Of a stretch of DNA of 64,000 bases, positions 44,039-49,990 are shown one piece after another (position 1 is the first letter of the stretch; the number at the start of each line of letters is the position of its first letter). The position numbers and the translations under genes are program-made. The notes beneath the pieces are model-generated. The model saw only the letters and a list, made by a program, of their open reading frames with translations, was not told the DNA's origin and did not search any database. Source of the DNA: an uncultured Actinomycetes bacterium (GTDB lineage Bacteria > Actinomycetota > UBA4738 > JBBDTT01); assembly GCA_963742735.1 (NCBI GenBank), contig CAVUMN010000003.1, positions 64,001 to 128,000 on the forward strand, written 5' to 3'.

Positions 44039-44371
44039 GTGTGCCGGGCGCTGAAGGTGTTGTGCGCCGCGCCGGGCCACGAGCGCCTGACCGAGCTGAA
44101 GTACGCGGCCGTCTCGAAGGAGTACGAGCTCACCGGCGGTGCCACGGACGCGGAGGAGCTGCTCCGCCAGATCGACGAGCTCGAGCCGGACGCGGTGGTG
44201 GTCACCGCCGAGCTGGCCGGCGCGATCGAGGCCGTCCGGGCCGCCCACCCCTCGCTGCGGATCGTCGCCGTCGGCGCCGAGGCGGAGGCCGCCGACGACT
44301 GGGTCGAGGACGTCCAGGAGGTGCGATCGGCCGTGCTGGGGCTCCGGCGTCCCGGCGGCCCCGTTCGCTGA
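44039..44371 (+). CDS. hypothetical protein, receiver-like fold
   Basis: KVLCAA...EPDAVVV...HPSLRIVAVG pattern. Confidence 0.6.
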   Translation: MCRALKVLCAAPGHERLTELKYAAVSKEYELTGGATDAEELLRQIDELEPDAVVVTAELAGAIEAVRAAHPSLRIVAVGAEAEAADDWVEDVQEVRSAVLGLRRPGGPVR

Positions 44372-44417
44372 GGGTCGCCTCTACACTCGGCCGAACCGAC
44401 CTCGAGGAGGACGCGCC

Positions 44418-44852
44418 ATGGGCCTTCGCACCCCCACGCCCGGCGAACCGCTTCGCCATCCCGTCAACGTCCGTCACCACGCCCGGCGCACGCTCGGTGA
44501 ACGGGTCGCCGACGGGGTCGCCGCCAGGGTCGGCTCGTGGCCGTTCATCATCGTCCAGTCGGCGCTGCTCGGGCTGTGGATCCTGGCCAACGGGCTGCTG
44601 ATCGGGCGGTGGATCTCCGGGAAGCCGTTCGATCCCTATCCGTTCATCCTGCTGAACCTGGTCCTGTCGTTCCAGGCCGCGTACACGGGGCCCGTCGTGA
44701 TGATGAGCCAGAACCGCGCGGCCGAGCGGGACCGCGACGCGGCCGAGCACGACTACGGGGTCAACCAGGAGGCGCTGGACCTGCTGAGGACGCTCGCCGC
44801 GGACCACGCGGCTCTGCGCAGGACGGTGGAGGGGCTCGCGAGGAAGGGCTGA
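44418..44852 (+). CDS. DUF1003 membrane protein
   Basis: GSWPFII, FDPYPFILLNL, VMMSQNR. Confidence 0.9.
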   Translation: MGLRTPTPGEPLRHPVNVRHHARRTLGERVADGVAARVGSWPFIIVQSALLGLWILANGLLIGRWISGKPFDPYPFILLNLVLSFQAAYTGPVVMMSQNRAAERDRDAAEHDYGVNQEALDLLRTLAADHAALRRTVEGLARKG

Positions 44853-44874
44853 GGGGGAGCCCGAAGGCTCCCCC
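44853..44874. terminator. hairpin between convergent genes
   Basis: GGGGGAGCC-CGAA-GGCTCCCCC. Confidence 0.7.
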
Positions 44875-44885
44875 CGTTCGAACCC

Positions 44886-45401
44886 TCAGGCCCAGGCGAA
44901 GCAGTGGGGCCATGCCCCGGGGCCTTGTGAAGCGAGCACGCGCTCGGCGACAGCGACCTGCTGTCCGACCGAGTAGGGGAAGGGGCCAGACCCGTTGAAG
45001 GGCCCGCCGCCGTTCGCGTACCAGGTTCCCGGATGGAACTGGAGGCCTCCCCAGTATCCGTTCCCGGTGTTCGCCGCCCAGTTGCCGCCCGACTCGCACG
45101 CCGCGATGGCGTACCAGTTCGCGCGACCGCTGCCGGTCGATGAGGCACCAACGGTCGATGCCGAGAAGCGGGTGGCCTTCCGGGTCGCACCCCGGAGCAG
45201 GGTCCGCTCGGCACGATCCGCGGCCGAGACCTGGGAAAGAGCGAACGACTTACCGGCGCCTGCCGCGTTCAGCAGATCAGCGGCCGAGTCTCCTCGGTCC
45301 ACGGTCAGTCCGGGCAGGGCGCTGGCGATGGTTGGAACCGCGAGCATGAACACGATCAATGCAGCCGCCATTTCCAGGCGGCGTCTCTTGGGTTTTTCCA
45401 T
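44886..45401 (-). CDS. resuscitation-promoting factor (Rpf) transglycosylase
   Basis: signal peptide; [34 protein letters not shown]. Confidence 0.92.
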
Positions 45402-45501
45402 GGCATGGATCTCACCCCCCGAGCTTGGACGGGGTTATCGGCCCCCGTCATGGGCCGGGTAGGTCATGGGTGTTGAATCACCTCCTGTGGCTCGTCGGAT
45501 A

Positions 45502-45608
45502 GGCCCTTCTCCCGGACCAGCGTCCAACCCACCGCGGGCAGCGCACGCGCGCGTAAACCGCGTCCGATAGCGAAAGGGCTTGGACGAGGGGCGGTCCAGG
45601 GGAAGGCC
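45502..45608 (-). ncRNA. candidate structured leader RNA or sRNA upstream of rpf
   Basis: nested complementary arms form a rod that starts just after the -10. Confidence 0.5.
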
Positions 45609-45611
45609 GCG

Positions 45612-45662
45612 ATTCTACCAGGCTGCTAGCCAGTGGCAAGCAGGTTTACGAACATGCGTTCG
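45612..45662 (-). promoter_or_regulatory. sigma70-type promoter with adjacent LexA box
   Basis: TTGCCA-N16-TAGAAT with extended TG; CGAACATGCGTTCG at 45649-45662. Confidence 0.7.
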
Positions 45663-45763
45663 ATCCCGTCCCGAAGGCGGTCGCGGCGGTGCCGGCCCGG
45701 GCCCACACCGATCTTCACCTGCCGGCGGGCTCCGCGTACCCACCGGGCCACTAGCATGGGAGC

Positions 45764-46690
45764 GTGATCCGCAAGGTCCTTCTGGCGTCGCCGCGCGGCT
45801 ACTGCGCCGGAGTGGAGCGCGCTGTCGACGCGGTCGAGCGCGCCCTCGACCGATACGGCTCGCCCGTGTACGTGCGCAAGCAGATCGTGCACAACCTGCA
45901 CGTGGTGCGGGACCTGGAGCGCAAGGGGGCGATCTTCGTCGAGGAGGAGGCCGAGGTGCCCGAGGGGGCCACGGTCATCCTGTCCGCGCACGGCGTGGCC
46001 CCGGAGGTGTACGCGAACTCCGAGGCCCGGTCCCTGAACGTGATCGACGCGACGTGCCCCCTCGTCACCAAGGTCCACCTGGAGGCCCGGCGGTTCGCGC
46101 GCGACGGCTACACGATCCTGCTCATCGGGCACGAGGGCCACGAGGAGGTCGTGGGTACGAGCGGCGAGGCCCCCGAGCACATCCGGCTGGTCCAGGACGT
46201 TGACGAGGCCCGCACGGTCGAGGTCGCCGACCCCGAGCGGGTCTCGTACCTGTCCCAGACCACGCTCTCCGTGGACGAGACCACCCGGATCATCGACGTG
46301 CTCCGCGGGCGGTTCCCGGCCATCCAGGGCCCGCCCCGCGACGACATCTGCTACGCCACGCAGAACCGCCAGGACGCCGTGAAGGACCTGCGCGAGCGCG
46401 TGGACGTGCTGCTGGTCATCGGCTCGCAGAACTCCTCGAACTCCAAGCGGCTCGTGGAGGTCTCGGTGGCCGCCGGGACCCCCGCCTACCTGGTGGACGA
46501 CGAGAGCGAGATCTCCCCGGACTGGCTCGAGGGCGCCGAGGTCGTCGGCGTCACCAGCGGCGCCAGCGCCCCGGAATGGCTCGTCGAGCGGGTCCTGGAC
46601 TGGCTCCGCGCCCGGGGCGCTGCCGAAGTCGAGGAGGTCCGCACGATCGAGGAGCACATGGCCTTCTCGCTCCCCGCCGGCGTTCGCTAG
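45764..46690 (+). CDS. ispH: 4-hydroxy-3-methylbut-2-enyl diphosphate reductase
   Basis: [33 protein letters not shown]. Confidence 0.96.
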
Positions 46691-49600
46691 CTACCGCCGC
46701 GCGAGGTCCCTCGACCGCCCGGGCCAGGCCGTCACCCCCAGCTCGCTCCAGGCCTCCGTCGCGTCGGCCCAGCCGCTCGCGTCGCCGCGCAGGGCCCGGA
46801 TCTCCGCGTGGAGCGCTCGGTCGGTCGGGGTGGGCAGCTCGGCAGGGAGCGGGCCGGGATCGCGGCCGTCCAGCGCGTCGATCTCGGCGAGGAGCAGCGC
46901 CGTGCGGACGGGGACCAGGACGTTGCCGATGGCCTCGGCCTCCGACCGGGCTTCCTGGAGGATGCCCCGCGCGCCGGCGAGGTCGTCCGCGAGCAGGCGC
47001 GCCTGTCCGAGCAGCGTGAGCGCGTAGGGGCGCCACAGCGCGCCGCCCTGACGCAGGTCCTCCGCGAACCGGCGCGCTCCGGCCTCGGCGAGCTCCGGGT
47101 CCCCCCGGTCCAGCCCGATCTCCGCCCGCGCGCCCCACACCTCGACGAGCTCGAAGCCCGCGCCGAGCTCGTGCAGCAGGGACTCCGCCTCCGCGAGCTC
47201 CCGGTCCGCGGTGCCGGCGTCCCCGCGGCGCGACGCGATCCGCGCGCGGAGCACCTTTCCCTGGGCCATGACCCGCCGGAACCGGCGGCGCTCGCCGGTC
47301 CGCGCGATCCGGTCGGCGTGGGCCTCGGCGGTGTCCAGGCGGCCGAACGCCAGGTCGGCGAGCGCGAGCGGGTACCGGCTTTCCACCTCCACGTCGGGGT
47401 CCCCCACGTCCAGGCCGAGCCCCACCGCCTCGCCGAGGACCTCGCTGGCGGCGGCCAGGTCGCCGGCGTAGAAGCGGAAGTAGCCCCAGGCCCGCCGGAG
47501 CGCCCCGACGGCCCGGGGCTCGGCGGTGAGCAACGTCAGCTCGTCGAGCCGGCGGAACGGCCGCTCGAAGGCCTCGCCCCCCTGGGGGGTGGCCCCCCAC
47601 GCCAGGTCCTGGTAGCACCGGAGCTCCCACCAGTAGTCGCCGACGGCCCGGAAGGCCCGCGCCGCGCGCTCGAGCGACTCCTGGTGCCGGCCGAAGTCCG
47701 CGAATCTCCACGTGTAGGCGGTCTCGAACAGGGCGACGGCCTCCGCGCGCCGGTCGCCGAGCTCCCGGGCGATCTCGACGGCCTCGCCCAGCAGCTCGCG
47801 CGCCCGCGCTTCGTTCGGCACGTCCGACTCCACCCAGCCGAGCACCAGCAGCGCGCGGGCTCGCCAGTCCCGCCGGCCGGCCTGCTCGGCCAGTGCGAGG
47901 ACCTCGGTGGCCTCGGTGCGGGCGTCCTCGTATCGGGACAGGTTCGAGAGCGCCTCGGCCTGGGCCAGGCGGACCTCGGCGAGCAGCTCGCCCTCTGGGG
48001 AGCGCGGGTCGGGGTCCAGCCGCTCGGCCAGGGTCAGCGCGTGCGTGTACTGCGCGGCCGCGGCGACCCAGGCGAACTGCATCCGCGCCCGGTCCCCGGC
48101 GCGGTGGAGGTAGTCCACGGCCAGCCGCACCGTGTGCCCGGGCACGCCCGGGTTGAGGGCCACCGACTGCGCGTAGTGGAAGGCCAGCAGCTCGACGGGC
48201 TCCTCGCTCCCCGGGTACAGGCTGGCCCGGACCCAGCCCGCGATGGCCAGGTGCTTGGCCGCCCGGTCGGCGCGGGGAAGCGTGGCGTAGGCGACGTCGC
48301 GGATCACGGCGTGCTTGAAGCCGAACTGGCGGGCGCCCTCGATGGTCGTTTCGTCCTGGACCCGGATCAGGTCGCGCTCGATGAGCCGCTCCAGCAGCTC
48401 CTCGACACCGTCCCGCCACCCCAGCGCGCGCAGGCTCCCGTCCCAGAAGGTCTCGCCGGCGACGGAGGCGTCCCGAAGGAGCCGCCGCTCCGGCTCGGGG
48501 AGGCCGTCGATGCGTGCCGCGACGACGAGCTGCATGGTCTCGGGGATTGCCGCGGTCTCGCCCCGCAGGCTCCATCGGCCGGCGTCGGCGCGGAGCGCGC
48601 CGCCCTCGCGAAGCATGTGCACCGTCTCCTCGAGGTACAGCGGGTTGCCGCCCGAGCGGCGCATGAGATCCGAGCGAAGGCGTTCGGGGACCTCGCCCGG
48701 GAGGAGCCCCGCGAGCATCGAGGCGCACTCCTCGGTCGACAGGGCTCGCAGGTGGAGCACCCGGTCGTCGTCGAGCTTGAGCTCGCCCCGCTCCAGGACC
48801 TCGGGCCAGCCGGCGCACAGGAACAGGACCGGGGCCGGCCACGGCTCCTCCACGACCCACGACAGGAAGCCGAACAGCTGGGGGTCCGCCCACTGGACGT
48901 CCTCGAGCGTGACCACCACGGGCCCGTTGGTCGCGAGCCCTGAGAGGAACCGCCGTACCGCCACGGCGAGATCCAGGTTGAGCTCCGCCGGTCCGGGGGG
49001 CGTGGTGGCGCTCCCCACGCCGGCCACCGTGGCCAGCCATCCGGCCACCCCCGAGCGCTCGGGCTCGGTGACGTCCGGGAGGGCTTCGGCGACGGCCGCG
49101 GACAGCGCGGCGCGGACCGCGTCGGGGTCGGCGCCGGACTGGATTCCCACGAAGCCTCGCAGCGCGTCTGCGATGGCGTGCCAGGGCCCCCGCTCGCCGT
49201 AGGCCTGGCATCGGCCCACGAGGTGGCGTGCCTCTCCGGCGGTCTCCGCGAACTCGGCGGCGAGCCGCGACTTCCCGAGGCCGGGCGGTCCGGCGATGAT
49301 CGCGACCGTGCTGTGTCCCCAGCCGGTGACCTCGGCCAGACGCTGGCGCAGCCACGTCAGGTCGATGGCGCGGCCGACGAACGCGGTGGGCGCCGCGCGG
49401 GATGGCCGTCCGCCGGGCTCGGCGGAGATCGAGCGGACCTGGTACGCCTGGACGGCCTCGGCCTTGCCCTTGAGGCGGATCGGGGCCCACTCCAGGTAGT
49501 CGGTGACGTGGTCGGTGAGATCGCGGGTCCTCGAGCCGACCAGCACGCAGCCGGCCGGCGCGACGCCCAGGAGCCTGGACGCCGTGTTCACCGTGTCGCC

Positions 49601-49990
49601 CACCACGTCGAGCCCGCCGCGGCGTGGGACCACCAGCACCTCGCCCGTGTGGATGCCCGCGTGCAGGCTGGTGGGGCCCTCCCAGCCGGGCCGGTCGGTG
49701 GCCCGGGCCTTGACCGCGTCGCGGCAGGCCATCGCGGCCCGGACGGCCCGCTCGGCGTCGTCGGCGTGGGTGGTCGGCACCCCGAACACGGCGAGGAACC
49801 CGTCCCCGATCCAGTTCACCATCGTGCCGCCGTGGGACTCGACGAGGGACGTCATGTCCTCCATGAGCGGCTGCAGGAAGGCGTCGACGTCCTCGGGGTC
49901 CATCGACTCGGTCACCGACGTGAACGCCGTCAGGTCGGCGAACAGCACGGTGACCAGCCGGCGCTCGCCGCGGGGGGGCGCCTGGCTCAT
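46691..49990 (-). CDS. class III cyclase-AAA/STAND ATPase-TPR protein
   Basis: FADL, GDG, GDTVNTASRL; GPPGLGKSRL; GGNPLYLEE; helical repeats. Confidence 0.9.
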   Translation of the reverse strand: MSQAPPRGERRLVTVLFADLTAFTSVTESMDPEDVDAFLQPLMEDMTSLVESHGGTMVNWIGDGFLAVFGVPTTHADDAERAVRAAMACRDAVKARATDRPGWEGPTSLHAGIHTGEVLVVPRRGGLDVVGDTVNTASRLLGVAPAGCVLVGSRTRDLTDHVTDYLEWAPIRLKGKAEAVQAYQVRSISAEPGGRPSRAAPTAFVGRAIDLTWLRQRLAEVTGWGHSTVAIIAGPPGLGKSRLAAEFAETAGEARHLVGRCQAYGERGPWHAIADALRGFVGIQSGADPDAVRAALSAAVAEALPDVTEPERSGVAGWLATVAGVGSATTPPGPAELNLDLAVAVRRFLSGLATNGPVVVTLEDVQWADPQLFGFLSWVVEEPWPAPVLFLCAGWPEVLERGELKLDDDRVLHLRALSTEECASMLAGLLPGEVPERLRSDLMRRSGGNPLYLEETVHMLREGGALRADAGRWSLRGETAAIPETMQLVVAARIDGLPEPERRLLRDASVAGETFWDGSLRALGWRDGVEELLERLIERDLIRVQDETTIEGARQFGFKHAVIRDVAYATLPRADRAAKHLAIAGWVRASLYPGSEEPVELLAFHYAQSVALNPGVPGHTVRLAVDYLHRAGDRARMQFAWVAAAAQYTHALTLAERLDPDPRSPEGELLAEVRLAQAEALSNLSRYEDARTEATEVLALAEQAGRRDWRARALLVLGWVESDVPNEARARELLGEAVEIARELGDRRAEAVALFETAYTWRFADFGRHQESLERAARAFRAVGDYWWELRCYQDLAWGATPQGGEAFERPFRRLDELTLLTAEPRAVGALRRAWGYFRFYAGDLAAASEVLGEAVGLGLDVGDPDVEVESRYPLALADLAFGRLDTAEAHADRIARTGERRRFRRVMAQGKVLRARIASRRGDAGTADRELAEAESLLHELGAGFELVEVWGARAEIGLDRGDPELAEAGARRFAEDLRQGGALWRPYALTLLGQARLLADDLAGARGILQEARSEAEAIGNVLVPVRTALLLAEIDALDGRDPGPLPAELPTPTDRALHAEIRALRGDASGWADATEAWSELGVTAWPGRSRDLARR

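Follow-up and report, generated by a model that had tools for sequence, protein, structure and literature searches.

What controls the rpf gene of an uncultured actinobacterium, and is the RNA upstream of it one of the switches known from other rpf genes? Lytic transglycosylases, Rpf included, are dangerous to the cell that produces them and are tightly controlled. Other Actinobacteria achieve this control with a riboswitch for cyclic di-adenosine monophosphate (c-di-AMP) or with a B12-binding RpfB switch; in the order studied here a different, uncatalogued leader is found at one fixed locus. The gene lies on the minus strand of a 64,000-nucleotide stretch of an uncultured Actinomycetes genome (GenBank assembly GCA_963742735.1, contig CAVUMN010000003.1, positions 64,001 to 128,000), hereafter the window, and positions below are those of the window. 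A model reading the letters without database searches had noticed an unrecognised rod-shaped RNA of about 107 nt in the rpf leader, just behind a promoter, and had proposed a new cis-regulatory RNA or small RNA (sRNA) controlling exit from dormancy (the original prediction). In our judgement the leader is probably a cis-acting translational leader of a new family, which buries a Shine-Dalgarno (SD) sequence and has the rod as its 5' domain. This reading draws directly on sequence blocks, their conservation, the gene context, the predicted burial of the SD, covariation in three helices (P1b, P2 and P3) and the presence of the leader in RNA libraries.

A DNA search of 61 related genomes divides the leader in two. 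The rod sequence is shared with a single genome of the same genus (79% identity, query positions 94-358), and three genomes of another family in the order match query positions 265-354 only, which are window positions 45499-45410 and lie 3' of the rod. Because only this part is conserved past the genus, the family-defining unit is not the rod but the core (45499-45405, minus strand, 95 nt). The core consists of AGGAGGUGAU (SD1), CACCC, A-N-GACCUACC, a hairpin, CCAAGC and GGGGGUGA (SD2), with the AUG of rpf 10 nt further on. The 16S ribosomal RNA (rRNA) of the same genome ends in ..GCGGCUGGAUCACCUCCUUUCU (read in L116), and SD1 pairs perfectly over 10 nt with its ..AUCACCUCCU.. portion. Invariance reaches 97% or more for the blocks SD1, CACCC, GACCU and SD2 across 68 distinct cores, and the identity of GGAGGUGA across them is likewise no lower than 97%. 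Many leaders of a second type (type B, below) carry AGGAGGUGAUCCAGC at SD1, a 15-nt complement of the 16S tail. SD1 lies 66 nt upstream of SD2 and about 120 nt from the 5' end. Between them stands an imitation of the rRNA itself, ACCU-A-CC, which is the 16S anti-SD ACCUCC plus one inserted A and which we call the mimic. SD2 is one base off SD1, and that base makes a G-U pair where SD1 makes A-U, both with 16S rRNA and with the mimic. The spacing of the conserved blocks varies from 67 to 124 nt, and the blocks are not palindromic.

Cores of type A precede Rpf or RlpA-like genes and those of type B precede SLT-type genes. In RNAalifold consensus structures of type-A cores, SD1 GGUG forms a small hairpin with CACC, the enclosing helix P1 pairs ACCU-(A)-CCNNG with CNNGGGGGGU, that is, with SD2, and an inner hairpin, P2, presents the conserved loop GCCGAUAA. 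In type-B cores the outer blocks are retained, and the interior holds a P2 that varies and a second hairpin, P3, whose loop is GCCAGC and which covaries well. In a model-guided alignment of the 68 cores (A4), paired cells make up 95.9% of the total and two-sided changes occur at 9 of 19 pairs. Such changes number 38 cells, where shuffles have 10.0 and none of 500 shuffles gets as far. The alignment was fitted to the model structure, and its pair counts are biased in favour of that structure. Sliding the partners reduces pairing to 47-57%. Covariation in this alignment is confined to P2 and to the inner part of P1 (P1b), in which C:G becomes U:A at columns 43:157 and 44:156 and ten double changes fall at 50:151.

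The blocks that are at least 97% invariant are uninformative on individual helices for that very reason. Three pairings among them are mutually exclusive, and each could form in 97.6-100% of cases: SD1 GGUG with CACC (99.6% of cells), CACCC with SD2 GGGUG (97.6% of cells), and SD1 GGAGGU with ACCU(A)CC (100% of the 68 sequences). Where the mimic does vary, C43 being U in three sequences, the partner in SD2 is A in two and G in one, and SD1 keeps G throughout; these cases are consistent with P1 as the selected helix. Predicted folds agree that SD2 is buried. Opening SD2 together with the AUG takes 5.9 to 14.3 kcal/mol in each of ten full leaders, and over 27 leaders the mean unpaired probability is 0.13 for SD2, 0.30 for SD1 and 0.51 for the AUG, with SD2 less accessible than SD1 in 21 of the 27 (single-sequence folds). 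The features are collected in Table 1.

Table 1. Features of the rpf leader and its flanks, in window coordinates
Feature	Position	Strand	Remarks
rpf	44886..45401	-	171-aa secreted protein with Rpf-type transglycosylase domain; PF06737, 94 bits, E 8.9e-27
SD2, GGGGGUGA	45412..45419	-	true rpf ribosome-binding site; buried in P1
CCAAGC element	45423..45428	-	between P2 and P1 3' strand; in type B, GCCAGC in P3 loop (alignments)
Helix P1	45414..45464	-	5' strand 45464-45454 (ACCU-A-CCCGGC), 3' strand 45424-45414 (GC-U-CGGGGGGU); encloses P2 and CCAAGC
Hairpin P2	45428..45449	-	GACGGGG/CCCCGUC with conserved loop GCCGAUAA; 5 of 6 pairs change on both sides
Anti-SD mimic, GACCUACC	45458..45465	-	5' strand of P1 with SD2 (96.6% paired), or alternative partner of SD1
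CACCC block	45468..45472	-	first anti-SD-like element; can pair with SD1 GGUG or SD2 GGGUG; invariant, without covariation
SD1, decoy SD, AGGAGGUGAU	45477..45486	-	10-nt complement of own 16S 3' tail (..GGAUCACCUCCUUUCU)
A/C-rich linker, UAUCCGACGAGCCACA	45487..45501	-	(C)CGA(C) element recurs in relatives (alignments)
5' domain (rod)	45502..45608	-	imperfect hairpin; sequence genus-specific; RNAfold z -2.40
Rod pairing CCUUC/GAAGG	45606-45602 with 45509-45505	-	
Rod pairing CCUGGACC/GGUCCGGG	45600-45593 with 45518-45511	-	one G-U pair
Rod pairing CGUCCAA/UUGGACG	45586-45580 with 45527-45521	-	
Rod pairing CCC/GGG	45578-45576 with 45530-45528	-	
Rod pairing CGCGG/CCGCG	45562-45558 with 45537-45533	-	
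Sigma-70-type promoter	45612..45639	-	-35 TTGCCA 45639-45634; -10 TAGAAT 45617-45612
ispH (lytB)	45764..46690	+	divergent neighbour; PF02401, 327.9 bits

The best case for the RNA as a functional regulatory unit comes from the genes behind the leader, because the leader stayed at one locus while the enzyme was exchanged. The 56 complete downstream proteins comprise 8 Rpf proteins (PF06737 over cut-off), 3 RlpA-like proteins (DPBB_1 over cut-off) and 45 small SLT-like proteins, which are secreted and about 145 aa long; 13 of these 45 exceed the SLT cut-off, 24 have sub-threshold lysozyme-like matches and 8 have no match at E ≤ 0.01. One member without a match (L006) is 46% identical to an SLT-positive member (L008) at E 2e-42. 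A pairwise comparison of Rpf with the SLT-like proteins is not significant (E 0.17); if the two share the lysozyme-like superfamily at all, they are remote within it. The DPBB fold is unrelated to both. This is non-orthologous displacement of a lytic transglycosylase gene under a conserved leader at one syntenic locus. The locus is marked by ispH, which stands divergently upstream of 61 of 62 leaders, 174-928 nt from SD1 (58 of 59 without three rows from unpublished genomes, L025, L025b and L029). That the leader was kept across enzyme swaps between unrelated folds argues that the RNA, and not the protein, is the conserved regulatory device. The proposal that it governs exit from dormancy was drawn from the name of the Rpf domain only, and in most relatives the leader precedes a transglycosylase other than Rpf. 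Two further observations concern the arrangement of the locus: the ispH-leader arrangement is reminiscent of the rpfB-ksgA-ispE linkage in M. tuberculosis, and one unpublished genome (G052, locus L025, positions 1500 and 2190) has two tandem units of leader and RlpA-like gene, the only such case seen.

To survey the order we used the core pattern GGAGGTGA-N8-14-GACCTWYC, with the reversed pattern as control. It occurs in 140 of 294 order genomes, in 53 of the 109 of high quality and in 41 of 78 genera, mostly as one copy per genome, against 3 hits for the reversed pattern. A covariance model, R1, was built from 15 Rpf/RlpA-type cores (alignment A1, with two rows from unpublished G052, locus L025) and scores the window leader at 96.5 bits. 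This is its sole match in the genome, which has a second Rpf-domain gene elsewhere yet only the one copy of the leader. R1 matched 53 of 151 genomes in a class sample, all of which belong to this one order, and 8 of 151 in a phylum sample, all 8 within the order and 0 of the 140 outside it; these large searches used Infernal's stricter filters and may miss weak matches. Pattern and R1 tallies include up to nine unpublished genomes (G049, G052, G077, G220, G244, G266, G006, G515 and G310), and alignments A2, A4 and A5 and the set of 56 proteins include none. A wider distribution was considered and rejected: a loose pattern occurs in 24 out-of-order genomes of a phylum sample of 401, apparently by chance. 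Of the 26 out-of-order matches listed, one alone (G337) has a CACCC block, at another spacing and in a gene-like locus (L052), and none of 12 fetched out-of-order loci exceeds 11.6 bits with R1 and filters off. A metagenome scan with a type-A pattern that proved too loose returned 5 true loci among 80 fetched, none near enough to the genus to inform on covariation in the rod.

The family is absent from the catalogues consulted. Rfam 15 at gathering score has no family anywhere in the window, a permissive scan of 45300-45850 (E ≤ 10) gave chance-level matches only (GRIK4, 13.6 bits; BSR0602, 12.3 bits), and scans of related loci and flanks gave the same, including asX4 in a flank. Nor was a description of the motif found in open-access literature text. 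The sole motif linked to a lytic transglycosylase that the literature searches returned is the yjbJ motif of Streptococcus, a different RNA (PMC11109978). Judged by the genomes sampled, the leader is an uncatalogued family confined to this order. On the Rfam scans and the literature searches, no described family with the twin-SD layout is known to us.

Three soil metatranscriptome libraries, each from a different study, contain contigs that are about 99% identical to the window and span rod and core together. Libraries X10 and X13 each yield a 168-nt contig (45423-45590, 2 differences) and a 326-nt contig running from the core into the coding sequence (45136-45452), and X18 yields a 151-nt contig (45438-45588, 2 differences); a loose end in X18 bears the SD1..CACCC block of a relative, which places related leaders in RNA too. 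In all three RNA libraries the cover stops at 45588-45590, some 15-20 nt short of the predicted start, and a DNA contig, X1, reaches 45654. The shared stop near 45590 is a weak hint of a 5' end, weak because the contigs carry neither strand nor true ends, RNA libraries can hold DNA, and X10 and X13 are perhaps not independent.

From these observations we infer the following switch step and effector. The leader would control the single secreted wall transglycosylase encoded at its locus, Rpf here and a small SLT-like or RlpA-like protein elsewhere. By default SD2 would be held in P1 by the mimic, with CACCC assisting, and translation would be off. SD1, earlier in the transcript and a slightly better partner, with A-U where SD2 has G-U, would compete for the mimic; once the mimic is captured by SD1, SD2 would be released and translation would begin. 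The balance may be set by a candidate effector, either a ligand bound in the conserved junction and loops or the 30S subunit seated on SD1. The rod, as the genus-variable 5' domain of an rpf 5' untranslated region of about 205 nt (start near 45605, AUG at 45401), probably shields or insulates the 5' end, and it would add more SD-like and anti-SD-like strands.

Several points weigh against this account. The support is computational throughout. The strands of the switch helices (SD1, CACCC, GACCUACC and SD2) never vary, and covariation neither selects nor proves any of these helices; the bias of the A4 pair counts has been mentioned. In single-sequence folds of the 27 leaders, meant to show which SD pairs with the mimic, the predicted partner is heterogeneous. 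The exact core pattern is missing from 154 of the 294 order genomes. The 5' domains of Rpf-type (type-A) leaders hardly exceed shuffles in stability, and that of the window leader has a z of -1.2 when the linker is included. The limits of the RNA-library contigs as to strand, 5' end and possible DNA content count here as well, and the X10 and X13 contigs are identical in length and near-identical in depth.

Two open reading frames in the leader were considered as possible leader peptides. Behind SD1 lies a non-conserved upstream open reading frame (uORF) of 10 codons (45467-45435, minus strand), the TAA of which, at 45437, falls in the GAUAA loop. A leader peptide is rejected because neither start codon nor reading frame is conserved: the ATG at 45467 is ACG, GCG or AGG in relatives, and in family f8 an additional base interrupts the frame. 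The whole uORF stretch is replaced in type-B leaders. An N-terminal extension of Rpf is excluded by the in-frame TAA at 45437-45435. A second non-conserved uORF of 16 codons starts at ATG 45405 (45405-45355, minus strand) and overlaps the start of rpf out of frame.

As to the rod itself, much of the original prediction was borne out. A promoter scan of the minus strand found the TTGCCA/TAGAAT site with a 16-nt spacer, 10 of 12 matches and a TG preceding the -10 (one site against 0.1 expected), from which transcription is predicted to start at about 45605-45610. All five nested pairings can be read in the minus-strand sequence, and RNAfold of 45608-45502 likewise gives one long imperfect hairpin in which the apical part alone is paired otherwise. 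The minimum free energy is -56.0 kcal/mol against -47.6 +/- 3.5 for dinucleotide shuffles (z -2.40; 3 of 200 shuffles equally stable), a modest excess given the GC-rich sequence. The 5' arm is CU-rich and anti-SD-like (CCUUCCCC), and the 3' arm GA-rich and SD-like (GGGAGAAGG). In the genome of the same genus, 30 pairs show 1 compensatory and 6 one-sided changes; the central CGUCCAA/UUGGACG is unaltered, and the basal 3' arm has diverged with its pairing retained. The leader has no match to a known family, is conserved and is present in RNA libraries, and the claim of an uncatalogued structured RNA in the rpf leader stands. What must be revised is the extent of the element, the 107-nt rod not being the conserved functional unit and the core lying outside it.

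Similar rods are widespread. We took the 5' domain, from predicted start to SD1, of 28 leaders with a recognisable promoter, with z computed from 50 shuffles. The first 15 nt pair with the last 50 nt in 25 of the 28, the median z is -2.26, and 15 of 28 lie under -2. Among 15 type-B leaders, compensatory changes occur at 9 of 16 predicted pairs. By eye, and uncounted, most 5' domains have tracts that are rich in CU and resemble an anti-SD (CCUUCC, CCCUCC), either close to the 5' end or in an apical loop, with GA-rich tracts (GGGAGAAGG and the like) on the facing arm. The rod is a real, quickly evolving architectural domain and not the signature of the leader family. In type-B leaders (for example L008, L013, L035 and L069) the apical loop CCACCUUCCCA resembles the 16S anti-SD, and a strongly conserved UAGGUCACAC box, complementary to GACCUA of the core, stands ahead of the linker. 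A pairing of this box with GACCUA was tried; it gives 5-9 bp in single leaders, with inconsistent compensation, and is missing from type A. Upstream of the promoter, about 10 nt from the -35, an inverted repeat CGAAC-GCAU-GUUCG (45662-45649, minus strand) could be an operator; as a family-wide operator it is rejected, the exact CGAAC-N4-GTTCG palindrome occurring only in the genus of the window (L001, L002) and in L046 among 237 loci. A listed 53-aa open reading frame at 45478-45639 was also discarded, its start sitting within the -35 box.

The absence of c-di-AMP riboswitch motifs, remarked on in the original prediction, is confirmed by search. The model RF00379 (gathering score 38 bits) found nothing in the window, in 45300-45850 (E ≤ 10), anywhere in the 3.08-Mb assembly or at 13 related loci (E ≤ 1), and detected its controls in Bacillus subtilis and Corynebacterium glutamicum. 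A canonical RF00379 riboswitch occurs in 17 of 121 sampled phylum genomes against 1 of 101 order genomes, and this lone copy (G041, 68% complete) precedes a gene for a 141-aa RlpA-like protein. The DAC-domain synthase (PF02457) was found in 0 of the 101 order genomes, of which 54 reach 90% completeness or more, and it was not found in the genome of the window (88.9% complete) either; the search detected it in 11 of 14 control genomes. As far as sampled, the order is without c-di-AMP synthesis. The lineage possibly has no c-di-AMP signalling at all, which would be unusual for Actinomycetota. Because the DAC domain is found in none of the 101 order genomes and the canonical riboswitch in one, c-di-AMP is unlikely as effector. 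On this sampling the leader fills the regulatory niche that RF00379 holds elsewhere, and it very probably responds to something else.

Could that be another metabolite or second messenger, as in a classical riboswitch? A ligand bound at the junction (CACCC-AN-GACCUA, CCAAGC/GCCAGC and the GCCGAUAA loop) would stabilise P1 and turn translation off, with SD1 as part of the aptamer; the difference from our preferred reading lies in the effector only, and the two overlap. The anatomy is that of a riboswitch, with invariant unpaired blocks and covarying stems of variable length, and the general marks of one are present in a conserved core, covarying peripheral helices and an expression platform overlapping the SD (SD2 buried in all ten leaders). 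As with the c-di-AMP riboswitch, the associated genes form a narrow set, wall-lytic enzymes of two folds; the only RF00379 copy in the order precedes an RlpA-like gene, and rpf genes elsewhere are described as bearing riboswitches (PMC6009663; 10.1101/2024.07.19.603033). Gene context, however, suggests no ligand beyond cell-wall metabolism, with c-di-AMP made unlikely by the DAC count, and all invariant blocks are SD or anti-SD look-alikes, for which a ribosome-related pairing is the simpler explanation. We regard a classical riboswitch as possible, with the balance of the evidence inclining away from it.

A constitutive stabiliser of the mRNA has to be taken seriously as a rival where the rod and SD1 are concerned, though it is doubtful for the leader as a whole. 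The rod and an SD1 that binds 30S without initiation would guard against decay that depends on the 5' end and make the mRNA long-lived. SD1 is a perfect 10-nt complement of the 16S tail of its own genome, 66 nt upstream of SD2, without a conserved start codon and behind a stable 5' hairpin. Such an action is described for the STAB-SD of cry3A, and mRNAs of Bacillus and mycobacteria are described as stabilised by 5' stem-loops and polypurine tracts (PMC4113751 and PMC2358910). Such a stabiliser leaves unexplained the invariant CACCC and GACCUACC, the covarying P1b and the burial of SD2, that is, the mimic and P1; and SD1 is some 120 nt away from the 5' end rather than adjacent to it.

A sensor of ribosomes is a more speculative form of the preferred switch, and we entertain it only tentatively. 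The decoy SD1, with 10 nt of 16S complementarity here and up to 15 in relatives, would titrate free 30S subunits while the mimic shuttles between SD1 and SD2. If this is true, translation of the one wall-cutting enzyme under the leader would be coupled to free ribosomes, for example on entering or leaving dormancy. The device would stand where other Actinomycetota have the c-di-AMP riboswitch, in a lineage in which no c-di-AMP synthase was found, and would have been kept while the enzyme was exchanged among non-homologous families.

It is unlikely that the rod is an RNase III-type processing site like those of pnp and rnc leaders, at which cleavage sets mRNA stability or remodels the leader. 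In favour are the length of the rod, about 40 pairs with hardly a break, and the similar end-to-end rods predicted in 25 of 28 relatives; yet no conserved sequence marks a cleavage site, the Rfam Actino-pnp and related models have no match, and the RNA contigs have no internal ends or joints, though contigs cannot reveal these. An RNA thermometer is very improbable. In it P1, with a U41-G158 wobble that is invariant in 68 of 68 sequences and a bulged A facing the SD, would melt on warming. The combination recalls ROSE and fourU designs, but an SD2 that costs 5.9-14.3 kcal/mol to open, with GC-rich P1b, P2 and P3 behind it, is too stable at soil temperature, and no thermometer family in Rfam matches. 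Least credible of all is a free-standing sRNA, or a GC-rich hairpin that arose by chance where two promoters diverge, with the conservation serving control of ispH or rpf at the DNA level: the modest z of the rod, the divergent intergenic spacer and the genus-specific palindrome would suit it, but there is no terminator-like site on the minus strand in 44800-45900 and the RNA contigs bridge rod, core and coding sequence, so that the sRNA of the original prediction is unlikely, and the conserved blocks adjoin the transglycosylase start at least 174 nt from ispH, are non-palindromic and variably spaced, and include in P1 an invariant G-U pair, which is strand-specific.

Two features of the flanks may be recorded. 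Between the rpf stop and a convergent DUF1003 gene (44139-44852, plus strand) lies a GC-rich hairpin, GGGGGAGCC-UUCG-GGCUCCCCC (44866-44842, minus strand), which lacks a U-tract and may act like a terminator in both directions. A 1099-aa open reading frame at 46691-49990 (minus strand) has, by eye, an adenylate/guanylate-cyclase-like N-terminus (..VTVLFADLTAFTS..) and then a long ATPase/TPR-like region.

If the preferred reading is right, the leader is one more orphan riboswitch candidate, with a link to the remodelling of the cell wall and possibly to resuscitation, and its twin SDs and anti-SD mimic offer a compact model of how SD look-alikes can build a switch. Two known systems are nearest in role. 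One is the c-di-AMP (ydaO/yuaA) riboswitch, RF00379, also a cis-acting structured leader ahead of secreted wall-lytic genes (Rpf, RlpA-like and others); it differs in being a pseudo-symmetric fold of 134 positions where the window leader has a 95-nt core and one enclosing helix, and probably in its ligand, given the count of 0 of 101 for the DAC synthase. The other is the RpfB switch of M. tuberculosis, described in two reports as a B12-binding transcriptional attenuator that occurs only in pathogenic mycobacteria (Schwenk et al. 2018, PMC6009663; Kipkorir et al. 2024, 10.1101/2024.07.19.603033). Going by these descriptions, both are lineage-restricted regulatory rpf leaders outside the general catalogues and both are linked to isoprenoid genes, ispE there and ispH here; the window leader belongs to another lineage, is built on SD burial and has no terminator such as an attenuator would show (none on the minus strand in the interval already given), and Rfam cobalamin models have no match in the window at gathering score or in 45300-45850 at E ≤ 10.

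SD1 has a counterpart in the STAB-SD of Bacillus thuringiensis cry3A, a 5' mRNA stabiliser (Agaisse and Lereclus 1996, as reported in PMC4113751). According to that report it too is an SD-like sequence far from the start codon, complementary to the 16S 3' end and not directing initiation, and SD1 resembles it in its complementarity to its own 16S rRNA and in the unconserved ATG that follows. SD1 differs in being embedded with an anti-SD mimic and a buried, nearly identical SD2, and in lying about 120 nt from the 5' end, behind the rod. The leader also has features in common with SD-sequestering riboswitch platforms and anti-SD leaders, in which an SD is buried by an upstream complement and a second upstream strand can compete; here, by contrast, the competitor is a near-exact duplicate of the SD, and the sequestering strand imitates the 16S anti-SD with an inserted A.

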